32,000 nt of DNA, taken from contig NZ_CP089976.1 in the NCBI RefSeq assembly GCF_022701215.1, positions 1,996,237 to 2,028,236 on the forward strand. The letters run 5' to 3'. The notes under the pieces were generated by a model, which was not told the origin of the DNA, did not search any database, and worked only from the letters and a program-made list of their open reading frames with translations. Of the stretch, positions 3,360-32,000 are shown one piece after another. The position numbers and the translations under genes were made by a program. This stretch comes from Moraxella nasovis. Lineage in GTDB: Bacteria > Pseudomonadota > Gammaproteobacteria > Pseudomonadales > Moraxellaceae. The stretch's first letter is position 1, and the number at the start of each line of letters is the position of its first letter.

Positions 3360-4265
3360 TTAAAGTTTAGTTGCTTGTTGTTTTAGACTATTCAAATAAT
3401 TAAACCACAAGCGATAAGCATTGGTTTGTTCAGGTAAGTAATGGTAATGGTCGTAAACACTACGAATACCTGTGACTTGATGCCCTAGCATCATCTCAGC
3501 AACTGTAAGTGACGTAAAACTACTAAATCTAGTTCTTGCTGTGCGTCTTAGGTCGTGAATACACCAAGGCTTCATCACATAGTGATACTGCTGATTTAGG
3601 TGTTGTCTGATACGTAGGGGTATTAAATTAGCCCAAGTGCGGGCTATAGGCTCATTAGCAGATATTTTCTTAATTTGACGATTGCAAAGCAGTAATTCAT
3701 TACCACTTAAAGCAATTAACTCATCAATAACTGCCAAAGATTCGTCCAGTATGGGACGAAAGATAGGCGTGTGGGTACGATACCCCATCTTATGGTTAGA
3801 CTGTGGTACAGTCCAAACCATCTGGATAAAATCAAAATCAGCCTTACGAGCTAATCTTAACTCTCCATTACGACAACCGTACAACAAAAGAAACTGAATG
3901 GCTAGACAGTTACGTTTAAATAAAGCACCATCTTGTAGTGCTTTAAATAACCATATCAATTCTTCATCATTCAGTACTCTTGACTTTTGTGGTTTTACAA
4001 TCCCAAAATCAGCATAAGCGGTTAATTCTTTTAAGGGATTAGTAGTGATATAGCCGTGAGTTACGCACCATTTCATTACCATACGAGCATAGATTAAAAT
4101 TCTGTTGGCTATGCTAGGGGATTTTTGTTTAACTTCATCAATCAAACTGACCCAAAAACTCGTGCTAAGCTTATCTACAGGTATATCACCATATTTTTTT
4201 GAGGGGGGTTGATGTTGGATAAAAATATGGCATGGAGGCGGTAGGTGAAGTGGTTTGATGGGCAT
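3360..4265 (-). CDS. Tyrosine recombinase (phage/P4-family-like integrase) lacking an N-terminal arm-binding region
   Basis: Catalytic signature is present: R in GCRNGELRLARKADF, HDLRRTARTR (HxxR), and LGHQ...VYDHYHY (H and Y). The core-binding-like segment is IANRILIYARMVMKWCVTHGYITTNPLKEL. An in-frame TAA lies 5 codons upstream of the ATG at 4265, so no longer N-terminus is encoded. Confidence 0.85.
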   Translation of the reverse strand: MPIKPLHLPPPCHIFIQHQPPSKKYGDIPVDKLSTSFWVSLIDEVKQKSPSIANRILIYARMVMKWCVTHGYITTNPLKELTAYADFGIVKPQKSRVLNDEELIWLFKALQDGALFKRNCLAIQFLLLYGCRNGELRLARKADFDFIQMVWTVPQSNHKMGYRTHTPIFRPILDESLAVIDELIALSGNELLLCNRQIKKISANEPIARTWANLIPLRIRQHLNQQYHYVMKPWCIHDLRRTARTRFSSFTSLTVAEMMLGHQVTGIRSVYDHYHYLPEQTNAYRLWFNYLNSLKQQATKL

Positions 4266-22571: not shown

Positions 22572-23456
22572 ATGTTAAAACCGATTTTAAAATGGGCTGG
22601 TGGCAAGAGTCAGCTGTTATCTCAAATCCAAAACCGCCTGCCAACTTATGTACAAACCCAAGATTTTTGTTTGGTTGAGCCATTTGTTGGTGGTGGGGCG
22701 GTAAGTTTTTGGGCGTTATCGCATTTTCCTAATCTAAAACGGCTGATTATTAATGACATCAATCACGATCTTATTAATGTCTATCGTGTTATTCGTCAAT
22801 CCGCTGACAGATTGATTGATGTGCTTTTTCATATCCAGCAAGAATATGATAATTTAACTGATTTAGAAAGCAAAAAGCCTTATTATTATGCCAAGCGAGA
22901 TTTATATAACTCTCGTAAGTCTGATAATATTACCCAAGCCGCTTTATTCATTTTTTTAAACAAAGCGGGCTTTAATGGTCTATATCGTGTCAATAAAAAT
23001 AATGAATTTAATGTGCCAATTGGCAGTTACAAAAAACCACAATTTTTAGACAAAGAGCTGATTTATCAATTGCAAAAATACCTAAAAAATGTGGAAATAT
23101 TAACAGGTGATTATGAGCAAATTTTGAATAAACTAGACAATACTCTACCTTGTTTATTTTATATTGATCCTCCCTATCGCCCGCTTAGTAATACATCAAA
23201 CTTTAATCATTATGCTCATCAAGAATTTGATGATAATGAACAGGTTCGTCTAGCACAATTTTGTCGTCAATTAGATAAATTAGGTTATCAATTTTTACTG
23301 AGTAATTCTGACCCCAAAAATAGCAATCCTAATGACAATTTTTTTGATGAACTGTATCAACAGTTTACCATCGAGAGAGTGATGGCGAAACGTGCAATCA
23401 ATGCCAAAGGCGATGGACGGTCGGCGATTAGCGAGATTTTAGTTTATAATTATTAG
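22572..23456 (+). CDS. Dam-family (alpha class) GATC N6-adenine DNA methyltransferase, DpnM / M.MboIA-like
   Basis: [21 protein letters not shown] (FxGxG) and a central IDPPY. It is the first gene of the three-gene cassette. Confidence 0.92.
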
Positions 23457-23464
23457 GAGTGTAT

Positions 23465-24352
23465 ATGAAAGATATTTATGATTCAGCACATTTTGACCTA
23501 CTCATAAGCACTTTAAAAGAAAAGGGCTTGATACAATATGATTATTTTGTAAATTGGGCAAAAGTTTTTGATAATATCACGCCGATTGAAAAAGAATTGA
23601 ATTTATTAAATACAGCAATTGGTAAGGATAATGTTGATGAAGTGCTATTTGATATTTTTAAAACTTATCCAAAAACTATTAAAGTCATTCCTATTTTATT
23701 GGCTATTCGTGATAAATCTATTGAAGTTTTGATAGATAGCTCAAATTTTATTTATAGAAATTTTAACTTTAATGATAAAAACATTGATGATGATAAAATT
23801 CATGGACTAATTGAGCTTCTGCTACAAAGTGGTTTTGTTGAATTGATTAAAAATAAACAAATAAAAAATTTGGTAGATTATTGTATTGGCGTAGAAGTAG
23901 GTCTAGATAGTAATGGACGTAAAAACCGTAGTGGTACATCTATGGAGATACTGGTGGAGTCTTTTGTTGCGTTATTCTGTCATAATCATAATTTAGAATA
24001 TCTCGTACAAGCCAATGCCAAAAAAATTGCGGACGCTTGGGGAATAGAAATACAAATTGATAAAACATCTCGTATTATAGATTTTGTTATAAAAAACGGA
24101 GAGAAATTATATTTTATTGAATGTAATTTTTATAAGGGCGGTGGCTCTAAGCTCAAATCAACCGCAACCGAATATATAGAAATGGCTCGTTTTTGGAAAA
24201 ACCAAGATATTGAATTTATTTGGGTAACAGACGGTGCAGGTTGGGCAGGAACACATAGACCACTAAGAGATTATTTTAATAAGGGTAATATTTTATTGAA
24301 TATACAGATGTTACAAGATGATTATTTAGCAAAAATAATTTTGGATAACTGA
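23465..24352 (+). CDS. Type II restriction endonuclease, DpnII/MboI family (GATC)
   Basis: IGVEVGLDSNGRKNRSGTSME, IDFVIKNGEKLYFIECNFYKGGGSKLKSTA and WVTDGAGW match the blocks I recall from R.DpnII. AGGAG lies 5 nt before ATG 23465. Confidence 0.88.
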   Translation: MKDIYDSAHFDLLISTLKEKGLIQYDYFVNWAKVFDNITPIEKELNLLNTAIGKDNVDEVLFDIFKTYPKTIKVIPILLAIRDKSIEVLIDSSNFIYRNFNFNDKNIDDDKIHGLIELLLQSGFVELIKNKQIKNLVDYCIGVEVGLDSNGRKNRSGTSMEILVESFVALFCHNHNLEYLVQANAKKIADAWGIEIQIDKTSRIIDFVIKNGEKLYFIECNFYKGGGSKLKSTATEYIEMARFWKNQDIEFIWVTDGAGWAGTHRPLRDYFNKGNILLNIQMLQDDYLAKIILDN

Positions 24353-25165
24353 ATGCTATATTTTCAATCTACCGATAAAAATTTTAATTTATATCAAGGC
24401 GATTGTATAAAAATCATGCCAACATTGCAGGCAAATAGCATTGATATGATCTTTGCCGATCCGCCTTATTTTTTATCTAATGATGGTTTGACAGTTAAAG
24501 ATGGTGTGATTCAATCGGTTAATAAAGGCAATTGGGATAAGTTTAGTACAGATGATGAAATTTATCGTTTTACTTATGAATGGTTAAATGAATCTCGGAG
24601 AATTTTAAAAGATAATGGCACAATTTGGATAAGTGGCACACATCATAATATTTTTATGTTAGGGCGTATTTTAGAGCAATTGGGTTTTAAGATATTAAAT
24701 ATGATTACTTGGGAGAAACCAAATCCGCCACCAAATTTCTCATGTCGTTATTTTACTTATTCTGCCGAGTGGATTATTTGGGCAAGAAAATATCCCAAGA
24801 TCCCACATTATTTCAATTATGAGTTAATGAAAAAACTCAATGCTAATAAGCAAGCCAAAGATGTTTGGCGACTGCCTGCGGTGAATAAATGGGAAAAACA
24901 ACAAGGCAGGCACCCAACTCAAAAACCACTAGGGTTGTTATCTCGGATTATTTTGGCCTCTACCCAAGAATATGATATTATTGTAGACCCATTCTCAGGT
25001 TCGGCAACCACAGGGATTGCTGGTGCAATTTTAAATAGAAAATTCATCGGTATTGAATCAAACGATGAATTTTTAGCACTATCTAAAAGGCGTTATATTG
25101 ACTTAACGCCCAACAACAAAACGTCATTAAAACAAAAAATCAGAGAGCAAATCAGTTTAATATGA
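24353..25165 (+). CDS. Second (beta class) N6-adenine DNA methyltransferase, DpnA / M.MboIC-like
   Basis: N-terminal FADPPY and C-terminal DPFSGSATTG (SAM-binding). The start directly abuts the endonuclease stop (TGAATG). Confidence 0.9.
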   Translation: MLYFQSTDKNFNLYQGDCIKIMPTLQANSIDMIFADPPYFLSNDGLTVKDGVIQSVNKGNWDKFSTDDEIYRFTYEWLNESRRILKDNGTIWISGTHHNIFMLGRILEQLGFKILNMITWEKPNPPPNFSCRYFTYSAEWIIWARKYPKIPHYFNYELMKKLNANKQAKDVWRLPAVNKWEKQQGRHPTQKPLGLLSRIILASTQEYDIIVDPFSGSATTGIAGAILNRKFIGIESNDEFLALSKRRYIDLTPNNKTSLKQKIREQISLI

Positions 25166-25412: not shown

Positions 25413-27935
25413 TTAATATTTCACACTTGCACCGATACTAAAATTACGTCCCATTTGTGGAGTGTACGGTATGTACGTTTCGTGGGCATAGATGGTATCA
25501 TTGAGTAGGTTGTTGCCTTGCAAAAATACCGAATATTCTAGGTTGTTTTTGTAAGTGTGATAATCTATCCCAAGATTTAGCAAGCGATGTCCTTGCGTTG
25601 CCTTAAAGTTGCGTTCGTGATGGCGGTCAGGCACTTTGTTTTGGGCAAAAACGTGGGTATATTCTAAACTGCCAGACCACTTATCATTAAAGTTAGCCAA
25701 AACTTTTGCACCAAGTCGCATGGGCGGTAGGCGTGGTGTATAGGTGTCTGGTTGAGATTTGTAGTTAAAGGTCTCTTCACCAGTCCAACGATTAGGCTCG
25801 TAACCGACAACCACATCGGGTAAATGATGCAGACGACCTTTGACATAATCGCCAAAAATCTCGCCATAATAGCGGTCGTTAAATTGATAGCCAATTTTAC
25901 CTTCTATGCCATAGAATTTGGCAGGGGCTTGATTGTAGCGATTAATGTGTAGCATTTGTGGGTGTTTGACGACTTCTGTGCCTAAGTGGTCGTTGACGGT
26001 TTCAAGGTAAATATAATTATCAAAATCATACAGATAACTGCCAAGTTGATAATTAAATTTATCGCCTTGATATTTAAATGACAGCTCGTAGTTATTGGTC
26101 TTTTCTTTGGTCAGATTGCGATTACCCGCCTCAAACGAATTGGTCGCCAAATGCGGTCCGTGCGTGTACAGCTCTTGGGCATTGGGTAGGCGTTCTTGGT
26201 GCGAGACGTTCAGCGACAGTGTATGATTAGGCAAAAACCGCCAATGCACACCGCCAGCATAAGATACAGCGGTTTTTTTGTGCGGTGCTGTGGCTTTTTT
26301 GGCTTCAATGGTGGCTTGTTCTAGCTCATCGCCTTTTAGGTGACTTCTGTCTTTCATGGTTTTTTCAATGAAATCTAGATCATAATCCATGCTGATTTTT
26401 TGATGTTCCACTCGTGTGCCAAAATCTAGCGTGACTTTATCAAAATCTAACTTCTCAATGCCAAAAATACTGCTATTTTTGGTGGTGTTCTCAGTAAGTA
26501 GTGGTTGCTCTCGCCATTCGTTAATCGGGTTTTTGGCACTGCTTTTTTGATTAGTGTGCTGCACACCCCACACGCCAGATAAATTACCACCAAAAGCAGG
26601 CTTGGGTGCAAGCGTGGCTTCTAGGCGAGCTGCCACTCCTTTATTTTTAAAGACATTGGTTGCAAAACTACCTTCTTTTTCGTTATGCTGATAATCCACA
26701 TAAGCAGCATCACCACGGATTTTTGAGATGGCTTGCCAAGGGGTGTTCTGCCATTCGCCACGCATATCAAAACGTTTAGTAGTCAAGTCAATCATCGGTG
26801 CACCACCACCTGTATGAAAATGTCCTTTGTGTTCGTTGTGGCAATCGGGGCGTGGGTTTAGGTAATTGATGTCTTTATCGGTACTCAGCTGTGGGTATTT
26901 TGCCAAATAGGGGTGGGTGTAGAGTTTGTCAAAAATGTAAGACGCTCCACAGCCTTCATATAGATGATTATGAGCAGGCAGACCATACTCATCGTGGCGG
27001 TGGCTAAACGCCCCCCCAAGATAGCCATTATCGCCAACCCAAGATACACCAATACTGGCAGATTTAGAATCTGCCCAGCTGTCTGGCAGCTTGTCAAAGC
27101 TTTTGTATTTGATTGAATTTTTGACTTCATGCAGACGAGCTTTTTCGGCTTCGTATTTGGCGTGGCTATTGGTGTATACGTAGTCATAGACACTATTGGA
27201 GTAGCGTAATTCGCCTTTTTTCCATTTGTCATAGTCGGCTTGTAGATTTTCTAAGTCATAAGGCACGTTGGCATAGGCTTTTAATTCATCAATGCTAGAA
27301 AACTGCTCTTGGCGATAACGTGGCGTGCGGTAGTTGTCTGCATTTTTGTGCAGGCCTTCAATATGTAGAACAAAATTATCGCCAATTGGACCAGTAAGCT
27401 GTGTGGTGAGAAGCTTTTCTTGATTACCTGTGTTAAAGCGTACGCTGGTCTCTGTGGTGAGCTGGTTGGGAATTTGGGTGGGGATTTTATTGTCAATGAC
27501 GTTCACCGCACCTGCTGAGTTGCCTGAGCTGTATTTTAGGGTGTTGACACCACGCACAATCTCAACTCTTCTTGCCAAAGGTGTATCAACGGTGATGGCA
27601 TGATCGGGCGATAAATTTGCCATATCAATAACATCAGCACCGTTTTGTAAAATCTTTAGTCGCTTGCCTTCTTGACCACGAATGATGGGGGCGGACGCAC
27701 CACCACCAAATTGGTTGGAGTGAATGCCAAGCTCGTCAGATAACGCATCGCCTAGCGTGGTGGCACGTTTTTTGAGTACGTCGTGACTTACTCGCTGGTC
27801 ACTGATGTTGGTTTTGCCTTTGACGTTGACGGTCAGCGTATCTAAGACGACATTGGGGTCGTCATTGGCATGAACGACACTCACTAAGGCTAAGCTTAAG
27901 CTAATGGCAAGGCTGGTAGGTTTAAATAGTTTCAT
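25413..27935 (-). CDS. TonB-dependent outer-membrane receptor, ZnuD-like (metal piracy type)
   Basis: Signal peptide MKLFKPTSLAISLSLALVSVVHA, TonB-box-like DTLTVNV, a plug domain, and a C-terminal beta-barrel ending ...FSIGASVKY. His/Cys-rich loops are AHNHLYEGCG and PDCHNEHKGHFHTGGG. ATG 27935 is chosen over the upstream extension in the ORF track. Confidence 0.85.
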   Translation of the reverse strand: MKLFKPTSLAISLSLALVSVVHANDDPNVVLDTLTVNVKGKTNISDQRVSHDVLKKRATTLGDALSDELGIHSNQFGGGASAPIIRGQEGKRLKILQNGADVIDMANLSPDHAITVDTPLARRVEIVRGVNTLKYSSGNSAGAVNVIDNKIPTQIPNQLTTETSVRFNTGNQEKLLTTQLTGPIGDNFVLHIEGLHKNADNYRTPRYRQEQFSSIDELKAYANVPYDLENLQADYDKWKKGELRYSNSVYDYVYTNSHAKYEAEKARLHEVKNSIKYKSFDKLPDSWADSKSASIGVSWVGDNGYLGGAFSHRHDEYGLPAHNHLYEGCGASYIFDKLYTHPYLAKYPQLSTDKDINYLNPRPDCHNEHKGHFHTGGGAPMIDLTTKRFDMRGEWQNTPWQAISKIRGDAAYVDYQHNEKEGSFATNVFKNKGVAARLEATLAPKPAFGGNLSGVWGVQHTNQKSSAKNPINEWREQPLLTENTTKNSSIFGIEKLDFDKVTLDFGTRVEHQKISMDYDLDFIEKTMKDRSHLKGDELEQATIEAKKATAPHKKTAVSYAGGVHWRFLPNHTLSLNVSHQERLPNAQELYTHGPHLATNSFEAGNRNLTKEKTNNYELSFKYQGDKFNYQLGSYLYDFDNYIYLETVNDHLGTEVVKHPQMLHINRYNQAPAKFYGIEGKIGYQFNDRYYGEIFGDYVKGRLHHLPDVVVGYEPNRWTGEETFNYKSQPDTYTPRLPPMRLGAKVLANFNDKWSGSLEYTHVFAQNKVPDRHHERNFKATQGHRLLNLGIDYHTYKNNLEYSVFLQGNNLLNDTIYAHETYIPYTPQMGRNFSIGASVKY

Positions 27936-27965
27936 GGCATTTACACAGGTGGTTAACATTAAAAG

Positions 27966-27996
27966 TATATTATAACATAATAATAACATGATGCAA
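27966..27996 (-). promoter_or_regulatory. Candidate promoter of the receptor gene with a Zur-box-like operator
   Basis: The minus strand reads TTGCAT (27996-27991), 16 nt, then TATAAT (27974-27969). ATGTTATAATATA (27978-27966) matches the left half and centre of the gammaproteobacterial Zur box GAAATGTTATAnTATAACATTTC. Additional ATGTTA repeats flank it. Confidence 0.4.
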
Positions 27997-28345
27997 TAAT
28001 ATTTCACTATATTAAGCAAGTATTGCTGGTTGCACTATATTGATAGCTGTATTAATAGTAGTGCAAGCTGTTGCAAATAAACAGGTATGACGCTATCTTA
28101 AGGGGGTGTGATTTTAAAAAAAAGACAAAAATTGTAAATTTTTTTTAAGTTTTGCACCATATTTTTCATGGTTACCTTAATTACCAAACCAAAAATTACC
28201 AAACTAAAGGTGTTCTTATTTTGCTAAGTTTGGATAAAAATTTAGATTTCATTCAGATTGGCTGTAATCAGCTTAAGGTGCTTAGCAATTGGTGTGGGAT
28301 TTACGGCTGGTTTAATACAGCCCCTTATTTATGGCATGGTGTTTT

Positions 28346-28573
28346 ATGCTAAACCAAGATAAAGATAAAATCTTAAATATGATTGACAAAGAAATAAATA
28401 GCAGTTATGTTAATTATCTAAGTAAACAACAGATGAAGGCACTCTTTGAAGGCTTTCAAAAAGACCAATTAACTGATGATGATAAAAAAGACATTGCCAA
28501 CCATATCTTAGCTAATTATCTTGATGATATGCATGAGACAGAAAGACTGATAGATGTCTTATTAAATGAATGA
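28346..28573 (+). CDS. Hypothetical acidic helical protein (75 aa), possible orphan immunity-type gene
   Basis: ATG 28346 overlaps the stop of a possible upstream 43-codon ORF (ATGCTAA). AT-rich. No motif recognised. Confidence 0.5.
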   Translation: MLNQDKDKILNMIDKEINSSYVNYLSKQQMKALFEGFQKDQLTDDDKKDIANHILANYLDDMHETERLIDVLLNE

Positions 28574-28972: not shown

Positions 28973-29037
28973 TTTTTTAGGTTTATCTGTTATAGCTCTA
29001 AGCTTTTTATTGATACAATATGCGGTTTAAATATTTG

Positions 29038-29124
29038 ATGAAAAAACTCGTTTTATACTTATCTTGCGGATTTGTACTATCCGCCCACACCCACTTACTG
29101 CCCCAACCAAAGATAATATCCTAA
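29038..29124 (+). CDS. Micro-ORF (28 aa) MKKLVLYLSCGFVLSAHTHLLPQPKIIS; signal-peptide-like or small hydrophobic peptide
   Basis: ATG start. The C-terminal AHTHLLPQPKIIS part lies in the conserved module and is identical in the paralogous micro-ORF at 30983-31072. The N-terminal halves differ in nucleotides, but both are MKK plus a hydrophobic stretch. Confidence 0.35.
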   Translation: MKKLVLYLSCGFVLSAHTHLLPQPKIIS

Positions 29125-29177
29125 CAACTAATAACTGTCTTTAAAATAACCAACCAACCAAATCTTTATCACACCTA

Positions 29178-29207
29178 TTGACAAAGTACAAGTGTTCTTA
29201 GTAATAT
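29178..29207 (+). promoter_or_regulatory. Cassette promoter, copy 1
   Basis: TTGACA (29178-29183), 18 nt, then TAATAT (29202-29207). It is identical in all three copies. Confidence 0.65.
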
Positions 29208-29211
29208 CAAT

Positions 29212-29292
29212 GATAACTGCTCCAAGATGATAATCATTCCACCTATCATCACCTTGGACAGTTATCGGCTATCAGTTTGACTGATAGTTTTT
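29212..29292 (+). promoter_or_regulatory. Structured leader, copy 1: a long hairpin containing a Fur-box-like core, then a terminator-like hairpin with a U-tract
   Basis: Hairpin 1 (29212-29266) pairs GATAACTG/CAGTTATC, TCCAAG/CTTGGA and ATGATA/TATCAT, about 20 bp in total. Hairpin 2 (29269-29287) pairs CTATCAGT-ttg-ACTGATAG and is followed by T5. ATGATAATCATT lies at 29227-29238. Confidence 0.6.
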
Positions 29293-29322
29293 CATAACAT
29301 CAATTTAGTTAAGGAAAACTTT

Positions 29323-29409
29323 ATGAAAAAGCTATCAATCCTAGCACTAACAATAAGTGCTACCGTAGCCACTGCTCCTGCATTTGCAAAAGACAGCAAC
29401 CAATTATAA
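29323..29409 (+). CDS. uORF encoding only a Sec-type signal peptide: MKKLSILALTISATVATAPAFA/KDSNQL (28 aa)
   Basis: This is the best Shine-Dalgarno of the cassette (AAGGA 7 nt before the ATG). It shows the canonical n/h/c regions with an AFA cleavage motif, then a stop 6 codons later. It is conserved in all three copies. Confidence 0.55.
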   Translation: MKKLSILALTISATVATAPAFAKDSNQL

Positions 29410-29436
29410 CACAGCTATCCCAACCACGAAGCAGAT

Positions 29437-29703
29437 TTGTCTTTTGCATTTGATGATAGTCAAAACTTGCAAGCGGTTACCATGACTGATAGCCAAATGC
29501 AAGAGACACAAGGGGCTTGGATTGGTAATGCCTTTGGCGGCTTAATGGGAGGTGTTGGCGGTCATTATGGCTATATGGCGAGTGCTGTGGCTAGCGGCAC
29601 CTATAATAGAAACGCACATCTTGCAGCGATTGGCACAGGTGCAGTTGTTGGCGGTATTAATGGATATGCAAGTACAACTGGCAAAAATATCAAGATTCGT
29701 TAA
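29437..29703 (+). CDS. Bacteriocin/microcin precursor 1: GA-type double-glycine leader plus a 61-aa Gly/Ala-rich peptide
   Basis: Leader (M)SFAFDDSQNLQAVTMTDSQMQETQGA, then WIGNAFGGLMGGVGGHYGYMASAVASG...GAVVGGINGYA (colicin V / class II microcin-like composition). The start is uncertain (TTG 29437 or ATG 29482). Confidence 0.7.
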   Translation: MSFAFDDSQNLQAVTMTDSQMQETQGAWIGNAFGGLMGGVGGHYGYMASAVASGTYNRNAHLAAIGTGAVVGGINGYASTTGKNIKIR

Positions 29704-29759
29704 TCAACTTTCTAAAAAGCGTTACTACTTTTATTGGTAACACTTTAAGAGATTTTCTC

Positions 29760-30032
29760 ATGATAATTATTTATATTGTGGCAACTTTGGGATTATTTAT
29801 TGGTTGGATTAAAAATACCTACCTGTTTAAAGGTAAGTTGTGGCTAGATAGGATATTTCTTTTAATATCAACTTCATTGCTAATATGGTGTTGTGTAAGT
29901 ATTACAAAATATGTCAATCATCTTAGCGATAATTTGGCTTTTATTCATTTGGCTTGTTATTTTGGATATCTTTTATTTTTGACTGTGGTTTTTTATAAAT
30001 TGGTAAAGCTTTTTGATAAGAAATTTTCATGA
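29760..30032 (+). CDS. Putative immunity protein 1 (90 aa, about 3 TM segments)
   Basis: It lies immediately downstream of bacteriocin 1. Hydrophobic segments: IIIYIVATLGLFIGWI, IFLLISTSLLIWCCVSI, LACYFGYLLFLTVVFY. Confidence 0.65.
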   Translation: MIIIYIVATLGLFIGWIKNTYLFKGKLWLDRIFLLISTSLLIWCCVSITKYVNHLSDNLAFIHLACYFGYLLFLTVVFYKLVKLFDKKFS

Positions 30033-30091
30033 AAATATCCTTATTACTTTTACCTTTTATAACAACCATCGCCACGCCGACCTACCCCTAA
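30029..30091 (+). CDS. Micro-ORF (20 aa) MKISLLLLPFITTIATPTYP
   Basis: The ATG overlaps the immunity-1 stop (ATGA). It is positionally equivalent to the micro-ORFs at 29038 and 30983. Confidence 0.25.
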   Translation: MKISLLLLPFITTIATPTYP

Positions 30092-30165
30092 CGGCTGATG
30101 ATATTTTGGCGGATAAAAATCGTTTTAAATAAAATAATTAACCAAACAAATCTTTACCATACTTA

Positions 30166-30195
30166 TTGACAAAGTACAAGTGTTCTTAGTAATAT
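30166..30195 (+). promoter_or_regulatory. Cassette promoter, copy 2
   Basis: TTGACA (30166-30171), 18 nt, then TAATAT (30190-30195). Confidence 0.65.
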
Positions 30196-30199
30196 CAAT

Positions 30200-30281
30200 G
30201 ATAACTGCTCCAAGATGATAATCATTCAACCTATCATCACCTTGGATAGTTATCGGCTATCAGTTTTGATTGATAGTTTTT
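30200..30281 (+). promoter_or_regulatory. Structured leader, copy 2
   Basis: It forms the same two hairpins. Stem differences from copy 1 are C-to-T changes giving G.U pairs (TAGTTATC, ATTGATAG). ATGATAATCATT lies at 30215-30226 and a T5 run at 30277-30281. Confidence 0.6.
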
Positions 30282-30306
30282 CACAAAGTCAATTAAGGAA
30301 AACTCT

Positions 30307-30387
30307 ATGAAAAAGTTATCAATCCTAGCACTAACAATAAGTGCTACCGTAGCCACTACTCCTGCATTTGCAAAAGATAGCGACTAA
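30307..30387 (+). CDS. uORF encoding only a signal peptide: MKKLSILALTISATVATTPAFA/KDSD (26 aa)
   Basis: It has the same Shine-Dalgarno and signal peptide as copy 1. The stop lies 13 nt upstream of the ATG of toxin 2. Confidence 0.55.
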   Translation: MKKLSILALTISATVATTPAFAKDSD

Positions 30388-30400
30388 TTATAGCACTGCC

Positions 30401-30667
30401 ATGACGGATAGCCAAATGCAGGAAACACAAGGGGCAAGATTTCCAAAATTTATTAGCAATGTAAGAGTGGATGGTCCAGATAAAGGATTTCGACAACATA
30501 GCAATGGCAGAATATTTCAAATAAGGTATGGCAATACCCCAAAAACTAGAACGCCTGTATTTAGGTTAGATCCCCATGACAACCCATCTCCAACCAAATT
30601 GCATATGCACATTGCACCAGATATCAATGCACATAGACCTTGGAATGCACCTTGGAAAAAATTTTAG
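30401..30667 (+). CDS. Toxin precursor 2: MTDSQMQETQGA leader plus a 76-aa basic, His-containing domain of unknown fold
   Basis: The leader is identical to copy 1. The mature part is RFPKFISNVRVDGPDKGFRQHSNGRIFQIRYGN...FRLDPHDNPSPTKLHMHIAPDINAHRPWNAPWKKF, which is not Gly-rich or hydrophobic. An alternative TTG start lies at 30368. Confidence 0.65.
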   Translation: MTDSQMQETQGARFPKFISNVRVDGPDKGFRQHSNGRIFQIRYGNTPKTRTPVFRLDPHDNPSPTKLHMHIAPDINAHRPWNAPWKKF

Positions 30668-30676
30668 GTACTATAA

Positions 30677-30937
30677 ATGAAATATGATAATTTTATCAAT
30701 AGTTTGAATGATTATTTGCATGGTCGTATTGATGGGAGATTATTATTAAATGCTTGGCAGGACTGCCCAGAAGAATTAAAACCCATTTACTATCAATTAT
30801 TTCATTTGATTGGCGATGAAGACATACGAAAAAAGGACGTGGATTACAAAAATTTTCAACTATCCTTGGTTAACAATGTAATTGGATTATTAAAAGCAGG
30901 TGATATTGAAAAATTACAAGGTATCAGCTTAATATAG
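30677..30937 (+). CDS. Putative immunity protein 2 (86 aa, soluble, acidic)
   Basis: It starts 9 nt after the toxin-2 stop. It has no signal peptide or TM segment. Its size and position resemble immunity proteins of enzymatic bacteriocins. Confidence 0.6.
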   Translation: MKYDNFINSLNDYLHGRIDGRLLLNAWQDCPEELKPIYYQLFHLIGDEDIRKKDVDYKNFQLSLVNNVIGLLKAGDIEKLQGISLI

Positions 30938-30982
30938 AGCTGATGATAAAGTAAAAGTTATTTAAAAATTTTGGGAAATTTT

Positions 30983-31072
30983 GTGAAAAAATCGTTTTTA
31001 TCTTTTTTAGTGTTAGGTTTTATAACCACCGCCCACACCCACTTACTGCCCCAACCAAAGATAATATCCTAA
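30983..31072 (+). CDS. Micro-ORF (29 aa) (M)KKSFLSFLVLGFITTAHTHLLPQPKIIS
   Basis: GTG start. The C-terminal 13 residues are identical to the 29038 micro-ORF. Confidence 0.3.
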   Translation: MKKSFLSFLVLGFITTAHTHLLPQPKIIS

Positions 31073-31142
31073 CAAATAATAACTGTCTTTAAAATAATTA
31101 AAAAAATAAAATAATTAACCAAATAAATCTTTATCACACCTA

Positions 31143-31172
31143 TTGACAAAGTACAAGTGTTCTTAGTAATAT
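31143..31172 (+). promoter_or_regulatory. Cassette promoter, copy 3
   Basis: TTGACA (31143-31148), 18 nt, then TAATAT (31167-31172). Confidence 0.65.
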
Positions 31173-31176
31173 CAAT

Positions 31177-31258
31177 GATAACTGCTCCAAGATGATAATC
31201 ATTCCACCTATCATCACCTTGGGTAGTTATCGGCTATCAGTTTTGACTGATAGTTTTT
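31177..31258 (+). promoter_or_regulatory. Structured leader, copy 3
   Basis: It forms the same two hairpins. CTTGGGTAGTTATC replaces CTTGGACAGTTATC, giving two wobble-compatible changes. ATGATAATCATT lies at 31192-31203 and a T5 run at 31254-31258. Confidence 0.6.
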
Positions 31259-31283
31259 CACAAAGTCAATTAAGGAAAACTCT

Positions 31284-31370
31284 ATGAAAAAGTTATCAAT
31301 CCTAGCACTAACAATAAGTGCTACCGTAGCCACTGCTTCTGCATTTGCAAAAAACAGCAACCAATTATAA
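31284..31370 (+). CDS. uORF encoding only a signal peptide: MKKLSILALTISATVATASAFA/KNSNQL (28 aa)
   Basis: Same architecture as copies 1 and 2. Confidence 0.55.
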   Translation: MKKLSILALTISATVATASAFAKNSNQL

Positions 31371-31401
31371 CACAGCTATCCCAACCACCCAAGAAGTAGA
31401 T

Positions 31402-31608
31402 TTGTCTTTTGCTTTTGACGATAGTCAAAACTTGCAAGCGGTTGACATGACTGATGATGAGATGAAAGAGACGGAAGGGGCTTTTGTTCCTATTGTGCTT
31501 AATTTAGCTGGACGTTTTATTACTAGCCAAGTTGCAAAACACCATTTAACCAATGTAGGCTTGGTCTATGGTACTTATACTTGGGGCAAAAGCCAAGGCA
31601 AAAAATAA
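31402..31608 (+). CDS. Bacteriocin precursor 3: GA-type leader plus a 41-aa cationic peptide
   Basis: Leader (M)SFAFDDSQNLQAVDMTDDEMKETEGA, then FVPIVLNLAGRFITSQVAKHHLTNVGLVYGTYTWGKSQGKK. The start is uncertain (TTG 31402 or ATG 31447). Confidence 0.65.
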   Translation: MSFAFDDSQNLQAVDMTDDEMKETEGAFVPIVLNLAGRFITSQVAKHHLTNVGLVYGTYTWGKSQGKK

Positions 31609-31637
31609 CTGAATTAAAGTCAAAACTTAATTCTATA

Positions 31638-31676
31638 AATATCAAGCTATTTGCTGAAAAAGCAAATAGCTTGATA
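31638..31676 (+). other. Perfect 16-bp-stem hairpin between bacteriocin 3 and its immunity gene
   Basis: ATATCAAGCTATTTGC (31638-31653) and GCAAATAGCTTGATAT (31661-31676) flank a 7-nt loop. No U-tract follows directly. Confidence 0.7.
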
Positions 31677-31706
31677 TACCCAAAATTTTAGATACAAGAT
31701 TTAATT

Positions 31707-31979
31707 ATGAAAAAATGTCCAAATTGCCATAAACATTGCATTACAATTTCTGAATTTTCAGGTGTATGCCCAAATTGTCATACAGAACTTAAAACTTCTC
31801 ATGTTTTTTCCATGTTAATCATAATAATATTGTTGCTTATTATAGCTATTAGTGGAGTTTTAGGAAATTTCTACATATCTACATTTGCCCTACTAGCCAT
31901 TCTTATATACAAACTATTTAGTTATCAAATAGAAATTTTGCTATTTCCTTTACTAATTAAAAAATCCAATCTCTTATGA
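31707..31979 (+). CDS. Putative immunity protein 3 (90 aa): N-terminal CxxC...CxxC ribbon plus 2 TM segments
   Basis: CPNCHKHC...CPNCH is followed by the hydrophobic segments MLIIIILLLIIAISGVL and ISTFALLAILIY. Confidence 0.6.
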   Translation: MKKCPNCHKHCITISEFSGVCPNCHTELKTSHVFSMLIIIILLLIIAISGVLGNFYISTFALLAILIYKLFSYQIEILLFPLLIKKSNLL

Positions 31980-32000
31980 TGAAAAAAAATTATCTTATTC
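31976..32000 (+). CDS. Start of a further small ORF (MMKKNYLI...), 3'-partial at the window edge
   Basis: The ATG overlaps the immunity-3 stop (ATGA), the same arrangement as at 30029. Confidence 0.2.

Follow-up and report, generated by a model that had tools for sequence, protein, structure and literature searches.

Which bacteriocin does a cell make when several toxin genes stand in tandem in its genome? This question is raised by a 32,000-nucleotide (nt) stretch of Moraxella nasovis DNA (NCBI RefSeq assembly GCF_022701215.1, contig NZ_CP089976.1, positions 1,996,237 to 2,028,236), called the window here, in which three tandem bacteriocin cassettes occupy positions 29139-32000. Toxin/immunity cassette arrays are usually regarded as silent spares or as being read through from one promoter. 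In this array each cassette has a private promoter, a probable leader terminator and apparently, as we predict below, an antisense RNA of its own. Each cassette is ordered as promoter, hairpin 1, hairpin 2, the Shine-Dalgarno sequence (SD) AGGAA, a short open reading frame (ORF), a toxin ORF and a small immunity-like ORF. We analysed the two hairpins of this leader and found that both are conserved in Moraxella and that they follow opposite strand rules, hairpin 2 carrying the wobble pattern of a sense (plus-strand) RNA and hairpin 1 that of an RNA from the minus strand. We propose, with a probability of about 0.45, that the cassette head is a convergent sense/antisense control module, in which a sense leader terminator is combined with a predicted cis-antisense RNA of ~185 nt.

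Two hairpins precede the signal-peptide ORF of each cassette

The initial annotation of the window had described the head of each cassette as a long hairpin followed by a terminator-like hairpin. We found this two-hairpin leader in all three copies (3/3), with coordinates, stems, loops and T5 tract as described. On the plus strand, the 20 pairs of hairpin 1 of cassette 1 are interrupted by bulges of 1 nt (C29220) and 3 nt (29251-29253), and the loop measures 11 nt. The 126-nt leader folds with -36.9 kcal/mol (z = -6.45), which none of 200 shuffled sequences matched, and the hairpins alone give -21.3 kcal/mol (hairpin 1, z -5.9) and -10.1 kcal/mol (hairpin 2, z -4.2). The three aligned copies share a mean identity of 91%, and the purine/pyrimidine pattern of hairpin 1 has three matches in the window, against 0.00 expected from shuffles. 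The fold had not been recognised as a known riboswitch class, and an Rfam search of the whole window agreed, with no match at the gathering thresholds; when both strands were searched permissively, the best match was a generic microRNA hairpin, with 18 bits against a threshold of 90 bits.

The differences between the copies are likewise those first listed. In the stems, three C-to-T changes (30247, 31224 and 30270) and one A-to-G change (31223) all give G.U pairs on the plus strand; in the loops, copy 2 has a C-to-A change, and copies 2 and 3 each have one additional T. Whenever a Watson-Crick pair undergoes a transition, one strand reads G.U and the other A.C. The four stem changes amount to only three independent transitions, each with a chance of 1/2 of being plus-compatible (p ~1/8), so that a claim about the strand cannot rest on them alone and homologues were needed.

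Both hairpins are conserved and covary in Moraxella

We gathered homologous contigs by protein-identity look-ups and by two collection scans with an SD+MKKLSILAL anchor that left the leader unconstrained. The anchor scans returned three genome loci and four metagenome loci, together with unrelated Desulfobacterales and other genes. Protein searches showed that the precursor of the relatives is an uninterrupted Sec-type signal peptide fused to an ADLSFAFDD..EMQETEGA leader, and a profile of its N-terminus detected 170 proteins, all from Moraxella or Lwoffella. The homologues came from M. cuniculi, M. lacunata, M. oculi, M. ovis, M. nonliquefaciens, two further Moraxella and several metagenomic contigs. 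Using nhmmer, we found ~36 distinct cassette heads, among them 24 of class 1 (two-hairpin), seven of class 2 and three without the promoter and hairpin 1. The 24 distinct class-1 leaders represent about 10 Moraxella lineages, and the promoter, the probable leader terminator and the predicted antisense RNA are conserved in Moraxella species from cattle, sheep, rabbits and humans. The two-hairpin leader was not found in the Neisseriaceae precursor homologues (Wielerella and a relative, loci L001-L008), and our literature search returned nothing on this family.

Folding and covariation were then examined on 24-26 homologous leaders. Since MAFFT alignments mis-registered the middle of hairpin 1, we relied on per-sequence folds and RNAalifold. 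The results showed that each class-1 leader folds on its own into hairpin 1, hairpin 2 and then a U-run, and that both hairpins keep their pairing through compensatory changes, as the initial annotation had expected. Built on the basal stem of hairpin 1 together with hairpin 2, a covariance model detected 26 copies in 247 kb of related loci, every one of them at a cassette head and in cassette orientation, with none elsewhere in the 247 kb. In the resulting alignment, 91.4% of the cells were paired, against 14-50% with slid partners, and seven pairs had changed on both sides; the observed values were reached by 0 of 500 shuffles. Another leader alignment (A2) gave a similar covariation result. 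In hairpin 1, GATAACTG/CAGTTATC is replaced by GATAACCA/TGGTTATC or AATAACTA/TAGTTATT, and in hairpin 2 an A-U pair is replaced by G-C in M. cuniculi and L031. Three leaders (L013, L010 and L031:8757) have the upper (apical) stem of hairpin 1 swapped for an unrelated sequence that still pairs. These findings support the leader as a real, conserved and structured element. A dispersed miniature inverted-repeat (MITE) or Correia-like element was rejected as a candidate, with only three copies in the 32-kb window and all 26 copies in 247 kb at cassette heads.

The two hairpins follow opposite strand rules

We folded each hairpin of the 24 leaders on both strands. Hairpin 1 was more stable on the minus strand in 23/24 leaders (mean free energy -17.6 kcal/mol on plus and -25.4 kcal/mol on minus), whereas hairpin 2 was more stable on the plus strand in 22/24 (-9.6 and -6.0 kcal/mol, respectively). 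The G.U pairs in the best folds were distributed in the same way, with 7 on plus and 67 on minus for hairpin 1, and 55 on plus and 3 on minus for hairpin 2. All three window copies are among the leaders whose hairpin 1 favours the minus strand (-28.7, -25.6 and -24.1 kcal/mol on minus vs -21.3, -19.4 and -21.4 kcal/mol on plus). The assignment of hairpin 1 to a plus-strand RNA, made from the three window copies, therefore did not hold, while the plus-only wobble first proposed was borne out for hairpin 2 and its U-run.

The consensus folds agreed with the single folds. RNAalifold on 18 hairpin-1 sequences gave an inner helix of 12 pairs on the minus strand (-12.96 kcal/mol) and five pairs on the plus strand (-1.61 kcal/mol). 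On minus, 98.1% of this inner helix is paired with 46 G.U cells; on plus, 77.4% is paired with 2 G.U cells. Ten hairpin-1 columns with one-sided changes are paired only on the minus strand (estimated sign test, p ~0.006), typical columns being U-A / U.G / C-G (3/10/5) and A-U / G.U / G-C / U-A (8/7/2/1). Such columns, as they appear in the alignment, show the classical mode of RNA covariation, though on the other strand from the one first proposed. The initial annotation had also stated that the changes would break a minus-strand RNA. Across the family the reverse was found, the one-sided substitutions in hairpin 1 giving G.U on minus and A.C on plus (46 vs 2 cells in the inner helix), and a strand call made from a few paralogue differences was thus overturned once homologues had been gathered.

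Mutation bias does not explain this pattern, because the window as a whole is G-rich on plus and the bias is reversed in hairpin 2, which lies two bases from hairpin 1. When DNA energy parameters were used, the strand difference of hairpin 1 was small (-14.0 vs -12.9 kcal/mol). This near loss of the difference favours an RNA explanation over one based on single-stranded DNA.

A candidate antisense promoter lies inside the precursor gene

On the minus strand, a perfect extended -10 motif, TGnTATAAT, is located 74 nt into the ORF (81 nt in M. nasovis). A perfect copy is present in 20/25 class-1 heads, whereas the class-2 and headless cassettes lack one. Across 18 distinct sequences the eight fixed bases do not change, while neighbouring sites take 2-4 states. 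The motif varies only at the 'n' and at the base before the hexamer, both of which change the amino acid (H/N/Y and N/T/S), and the three synonymous third positions inside it never vary. Read from these alignments, the pattern is the reverse of what coding constraint alone would predict. By its match to the consensus, the motif is a candidate opposite-strand promoter facing the leader.

We then compared both strands of the 177-nt region from the extended -10 to hairpin 1. The minus strand folded better in 24/24 leaders, with a mean free energy of -65.0 kcal/mol (z -6.8) vs -43.3 kcal/mol (z -4.3) on plus; for the antisense region of the window the values were -72.8 kcal/mol (z -7.5) and -52.9 kcal/mol (z -6.0). 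The minus consensus, with a free energy of -23.4 kcal/mol, contains 40 pairs, 11 of which show compensatory change; 97.5% of its cells are paired, and 0/500 shuffles reached the observed value in any of the five measures. The plus consensus is limited to 22 pairs (three compensatory; -9.66 kcal/mol), in essence hairpin 2 together with a pairing of the U-run with the AUG. The comparison points to selection for secondary structure on the antisense strand. An antisense RNA starting at the candidate promoter is predicted to begin with a hairpin and to end, on its 3' side, with the 22-bp minus-strand form of hairpin 1; the central domain between them would be complementary to the SD, the AUG and hairpin 2. 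Judged by its flanking bases, the minus-strand hairpin 1 does not look like a canonical terminator.

Two other candidates in this region were rejected: an internal plus-strand promoter in hairpin 2 (TTGACT...) is not conserved, and a small minus-strand ORF across hairpin 1 (29175-29252, MMIGGMIIILEQ...) is not conserved in L016.

Hairpin 2 is probably a weak leader terminator

Hairpin 2 has the geometry of an intrinsic terminator and lies between the promoter and the SD. Its stem of 8-10 bp is AU-rich with three G-C pairs, and its free energy ranges from -6.4 to -12.7 kcal/mol in 23/24 leaders. A run of U4-U6 follows directly on its 3' side in nearly all 24 leaders and is interrupted in L009 (UCUUUU) and L031:10001 (UUCUUU). 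In the covariance-model alignment the helix is 94.8% paired, with two compensatory pairs; in M. oculi hairpin 2 is degraded. A general terminator scan of the window did not flag hairpin 2, and no conserved antiterminator pairing with its 5' arm was present in single or consensus folds. A protein or an antisense factor may still make termination conditional. The d'Aubenton-Carafa scores are borderline and are distorted where the fold absorbs U's into the stem. The terminator-like character proposed in the initial annotation was therefore upheld in geometry, U-run and plus-strand conservation, and falls short in strength by E. coli criteria. The AU-rich stem, the borderline score, the silent scan and the lack of an antiterminator fold together suggest that hairpin 2 is a weak and probably leaky leader terminator.

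The U-run may have a second role. A UUUUCA/UGAAAA pairing between it and the start region is conserved in the plus consensus fold, and by this pairing the U-run of hairpin 2 may mask the start codon.

A proposed convergent sense/antisense module and its alternatives

In the proposed module, the cassette promoter would start an RNA at the foot of hairpin 1. About 60 nt further on, hairpin 2 and the U-run would form before the SD and stop part of the transcripts, and the U-run could also pair with the AUGAAAA start region. From the other side, the extended -10 TGnTATAAT inside precursor codons 25-27 would drive a structured RNA of ~185 nt whose sequence is the complement of the entire leader and, beyond it, of the SD, the start codon and the signal-peptide codons, hairpin 1 being its long 3'-terminal stem-loop. 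This antisense RNA would keep each bacteriocin precursor off by forming a duplex over the ribosome-binding site, and might in addition promote termination at hairpin 2 or duplex cleavage. What the leaders show directly is that the element is conserved and covaries, that its two hairpins carry opposite strand signatures and that the promoter motif is conserved; production of either RNA, their ends and the direction of regulation are what we infer. That the ~185-nt cis-antisense RNA of each cassette forms a new, Moraxella-restricted RNA family and, with the terminator, gates each toxin gene individually, by antisense-assisted attenuation or by a translational block, is possible but in our view doubtful.

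Several observations weigh against the module. The three substitutions of the window copies are plus-compatible and weaken the minus-strand hairpin 1. The leaders are related and exchanged by recombination, so that cell counts overstate the number of independent events, and about half of the raw energy gap between the strands comes from G+U-rich composition, as judged from shuffle means, although the z-scores still favour minus. Hairpin 2 is AU-rich (-8 to -12 kcal/mol) and has a borderline d'Aubenton-Carafa score, on a scale calibrated with E. coli. The motif TGnTATAAT also encodes a conserved (H/N)YNT peptide, and it was inherited together with hairpin 1 in one recombining 5' module, so that the association of the two is not independent evidence. 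Finally, U4-U6 follows the minus-strand hairpin 1 in only about 10/24 heads, and M. nasovis, with the tail AUUGAUAUUA, is not among them. The shared 5' module, the coding motif, the missing U-run, composition, non-independence and the plus-favouring window substitutions are the reasons why we rate the module at about 0.45 and still give some weight to a reading that keeps both hairpins in the plus strand.

If both hairpins worked in the sense RNA, hairpin 1 would be a 5'-terminal stabilising or regulatory stem, hairpin 2 an attenuator or the terminator of a sense small RNA of ~80 nt, and the minus-strand pattern incidental. In every species the distance from the -10 to hairpin 1 is 4-7 nt, which puts the hairpin at the predicted 5' end, and folding is good on the plus strand too (z -5.9 for hairpin 1, -6.45 for the leader). 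The Watson-Crick-to-Watson-Crick covariation of the basal stem is valid on both strands, the three changes in the window copies suit the plus strand, and hairpin 2 is clearly plus-specific. However, read on plus, only 77% of the cells in the 12-pair inner helix of hairpin 1 are paired. The 48 mismatched cells are nearly all of the A.C kind, which should have been removed had selection acted on a plus-strand RNA, as happened in hairpin 2. In the plus consensus, hairpin 1 is reduced to five pairs, and the folds showed no conserved antiterminator pairing. We consider this explanation unlikely. Still less probable is that the hairpins have no function of their own and are relics carried along by duplication or gene conversion of the cassette 5' module. 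In its favour, copies from one genome are 91-94% identical, decay is common among the cassettes (frameshifts, in-frame stops, non-ATG starts) and hairpin 2 of M. oculi is degraded. Against it, compensatory changes and stem replacement with pairing kept occur in about 10 lineages, and the adjacent hairpins have opposite strand-specific wobble patterns.

Two readings place the function of hairpin 1 in DNA, and we regard each as very improbable. As a bottom-strand recombination hairpin, comparable to an integron attC site or the end of an element moved by an HUH transposase, hairpin 1 would be in keeping with the arrays of cassettes, the better folding of the bottom strand and the invariant AAC...GTT at the stem base, reminiscent of RYYYAAC/GTTRRRY. 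The homology of the heads, however, runs through hairpin 1 into the promoter and the upstream remnant with no junction at GTT, the full RYYYAAC/GTTRRRY boxes are not matched, and no integrase or HUH gene is linked in eight loci, the only tyrosine recombinase of the window lying 25 kb away. The small strand difference with DNA parameters and the continuation of minus-strand structure for 120 nt past the hairpin into coding sequence also disagree with it. As a double-stranded operator, hairpin 1 could bind a repressor such as Fur: its apex ATGATAATCAT (29227-29237) equals positions 5-15 of the Fur box GATAATGATAATCATTATC, the site directly follows the promoter, and a TonB-dependent receptor gene (25413-28019) is adjacent. 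But the motif is not conserved, relatives carrying ATGACAATC, GGTGATATC or ACGATAATC; a strand-specific wobble pattern has no meaning for duplex DNA; and the unrelated stems of L013, L010 and L031:8757 keep the pairing and not the sequence, which rules out a sequence-specific operator such as a Fur box. The 11-nt core of the 19-bp Fur consensus was accordingly set aside as a match that M. nasovis owes to its lineage only. Even taken jointly, the relic, recombination and operator readings receive only a small share of the probability.

Relation to known antisense and attenuation systems

Countertranscript-driven transcriptional attenuation controls the rep genes of plasmids such as pT181, pIP501 and pAMbeta1. 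The cassette heads resemble these systems in having a sense leader with a terminator-like hairpin just 5' of the ribosome-binding site and a predicted opposite-strand RNA of the leader whose stem-loops are under selection. They differ in being chromosomal bacteriocin cassettes of a Gram-negative bacterium and in the position of the candidate antisense promoter, which is inside the coding region, so that the predicted RNA covers the SD and AUG. The alternative pre-emptor/antiterminator fold of the plasmid systems was not found in the leaders.

Type I toxin-antitoxin loci, such as hok/sok and fst RNAI/RNAII, share with the cassette heads a cis-encoded antisense RNA (predicted in our case) over the translation start of a toxic product, a highly structured sense leader, and convergent units with hairpins in the overlap. 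Here, unlike in those loci, the target is a secreted bacteriocin precursor of 100-210 amino acids (aa) with its own immunity gene and not a small membrane toxin, and no Rfam match to any type I family was found. As in leader attenuators with intrinsic terminators, a stem-loop followed by 4-6 U lies between promoter and SD and covaries on the plus strand; in contrast to them, hairpin 2 is AU-rich and a ligand-binding or antiterminator domain is not evident. With integron attC sites, hairpin 1 shares an imperfect inverted repeat at each arrayed cassette, the better-folding bottom strand and AAC...GTT at the base, but it lies between promoter and gene and not at a cassette junction, without a linked integrase and without the full boxes. 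An attC site was rejected as a candidate, since only AAC/GTT is conserved, homology crosses the site and the related loci contain no integrase.

Each of these kinds of control is known, and what would be new is the setting, a cis-antisense RNA and a leader terminator on the individually gated cassettes of a bacteriocin array. If the module is real, it offers a testable mechanism for which bacteriocin of an array a cell makes, and a circuit of the plasmid-copy-control type would have been reused to choose the expressed bacteriocin. Confirmation would also bring in an RNA family that is so far unannotated and is well supported by covariation.

Layout of the cassettes and other features of the locus

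The coordinates of the features are collected in Table 1. A consensus scan found the TTGACA-18-TAATAT promoter at all three cassette heads. The short ORF after the SD begins with MKKLSILALTISATVAT.PAFAK..., and the variable toxin ORF of each cassette is preceded by a double-glycine-type leader ending in ..MTDSQMQETQGA. A Pfam search gave no matches for the proteins of the three cassettes. The 88-aa product of 29437-29703 is identical (100%) to LU293_09765 at NCBI.

Table 1. Positions of the leader elements and predicted antisense features in the window
Feature	Coordinates	Strand	Remarks
Cassette 1 sense promoter	29178..29207	+	-35 TTGACA, 18-nt spacer, -10 TAATAT; consensus scan; -35/-10 at the same place in homologous heads
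Hairpin 1, cassette 1, 55-nt inverted repeat	29212..29266		plus: 20 pairs, two bulges, -21.3 kcal/mol; minus: 22 pairs, one bulge, -28.7 kcal/mol
Hairpin 2, cassette 1, with U5	29268..29292	+	8-9 bp, loop UUG; stem 29268/9-29287/8, T5 29288-29292; terminator-like
U-run and CAUAA	29288..29297	+	exact complement of UUAUGAAAAA (29321-29330); seen in sequence and folds
Cassette 1 SD and 28-codon signal-peptide ORF	29312..29409	+	SD AGGAA 29312-29316; ATG 29323; stop 29407-29409
Candidate antisense promoter, cassette 1	29403..29411	-	extended -10 TGTTATAAT; core invariant in 18 distinct heads, flanks vary
Predicted cis-antisense RNA, cassette 1	29205..29396	-	about 185-190 nt; from fold; start ~7 nt downstream of the -10
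Cassette 2 head	30166..30281	+	promoter 30166-30195; hairpin 1 30200-30254; hairpin 2 and U5 30256-30281
Candidate antisense promoter, cassette 2	30387..30395	-	extended -10 TGCTATAAT; -35 TTGGCT at 30415-30410; also picked up by consensus scan
Cassette 3 head	31143..31258	+	promoter 31143-31172; hairpin 1 31177-31231; hairpin 2 and U5 31233-31258
Candidate antisense promoter, cassette 3	31364..31372	-	extended -10 TGTTATAAT

The spacer of the sense promoter contains an inverted repeat, TACAAnTGT (GTACAAnTGTAT, arms TACA/TGTA), at 29187-29198, 30175-30186 and 31152-31163. It is kept in most class-1 heads, in all species, and may be an operator for some regulator.

The three M. nasovis precursors (29323-29703, 30307-30667 and 31284-31608) are all broken at the same point. 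One extra base after the signal peptide (GCAAAAGAC vs GCAGAGAC in relatives) causes a frameshift, with stops arising at 29407-29409, 30385-30387 and 31368-31370; the 28-codon ORF of cassette 1 is the frameshifted N-terminus of the bacteriocin precursor. In relatives such as M. cuniculi the precursor is intact (104 aa). The M. nasovis precursors are either pseudogenes or restarted at an internal TTG/ATG without the signal peptide. In other species, in-frame stops occur in cassettes of L010 and L013, and a frameshift in L017:2560.

The class-2 leader reads GCAAGTCAGCACA...TGCTGAC...CTTGT followed by a T-run, and shares its SD and signal-peptide codons with class 1. Class-2 heads are located at L012 578-715, L010 9866-10003 and 11940-12077, L018 1462-1599, and L027 8760, 11339 and 12495; when these seven heads were folded, no clear strand signal was found. 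Three further heads (L029 14314-14421, L032 8706-8813 and L027 16177-16285) retain only the 3' arm of hairpin 2, the U-run and the SD, and the unrelated DNA upstream of them indicates a recombination breakpoint inside hairpin 2.

The ends of the cassettes carry a short remnant of a signal-peptide ORF (e.g. MKKSFLSFLVLGFITTAHTHLLPQPKIIS; 29020-29124, 30030-30090 and 30971-31072), similar to the 5' end of the gene for the outer-membrane protein with which arrays close in other species. The single cassette of M. cuniculi has a 40-bp direct repeat on either side. The remnants and this repeat point to cassette gain by homologous recombination. The bacteriocin family pairs a Sec-type signal peptide with a double-glycine-type leader (..EMQETEGA), and at the end of its arrays lie genes for a ~310-aa beta-barrel outer-membrane protein and for a Peptidase_C39 that stands alone instead of being part of a C39-ABC transporter (L009 10001-12324, L027 10001-19219 and L031 10001-12930). 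The presence of the outer-membrane protein and the stand-alone Peptidase_C39 suggests an unusual two-step export route.

Upstream of cassette 1, a degenerate copy of the promoter region (28195-28218, 79% identity over 24 nt) lies beside two small ORFs of 66 and 80 aa (28152-28573). The covariance model found no hairpins at 28152-28573, and the region may be a decayed or a different cassette. Elsewhere in the window, the TonB-dependent receptor gene is on the minus strand and diverges from the cassettes, and the sole tyrosine recombinase is encoded at 3360-4265 (minus strand). At 22572-25165, two DNA methylase-type ORFs flank a 297-aa ORF in what looks like a restriction-modification system.

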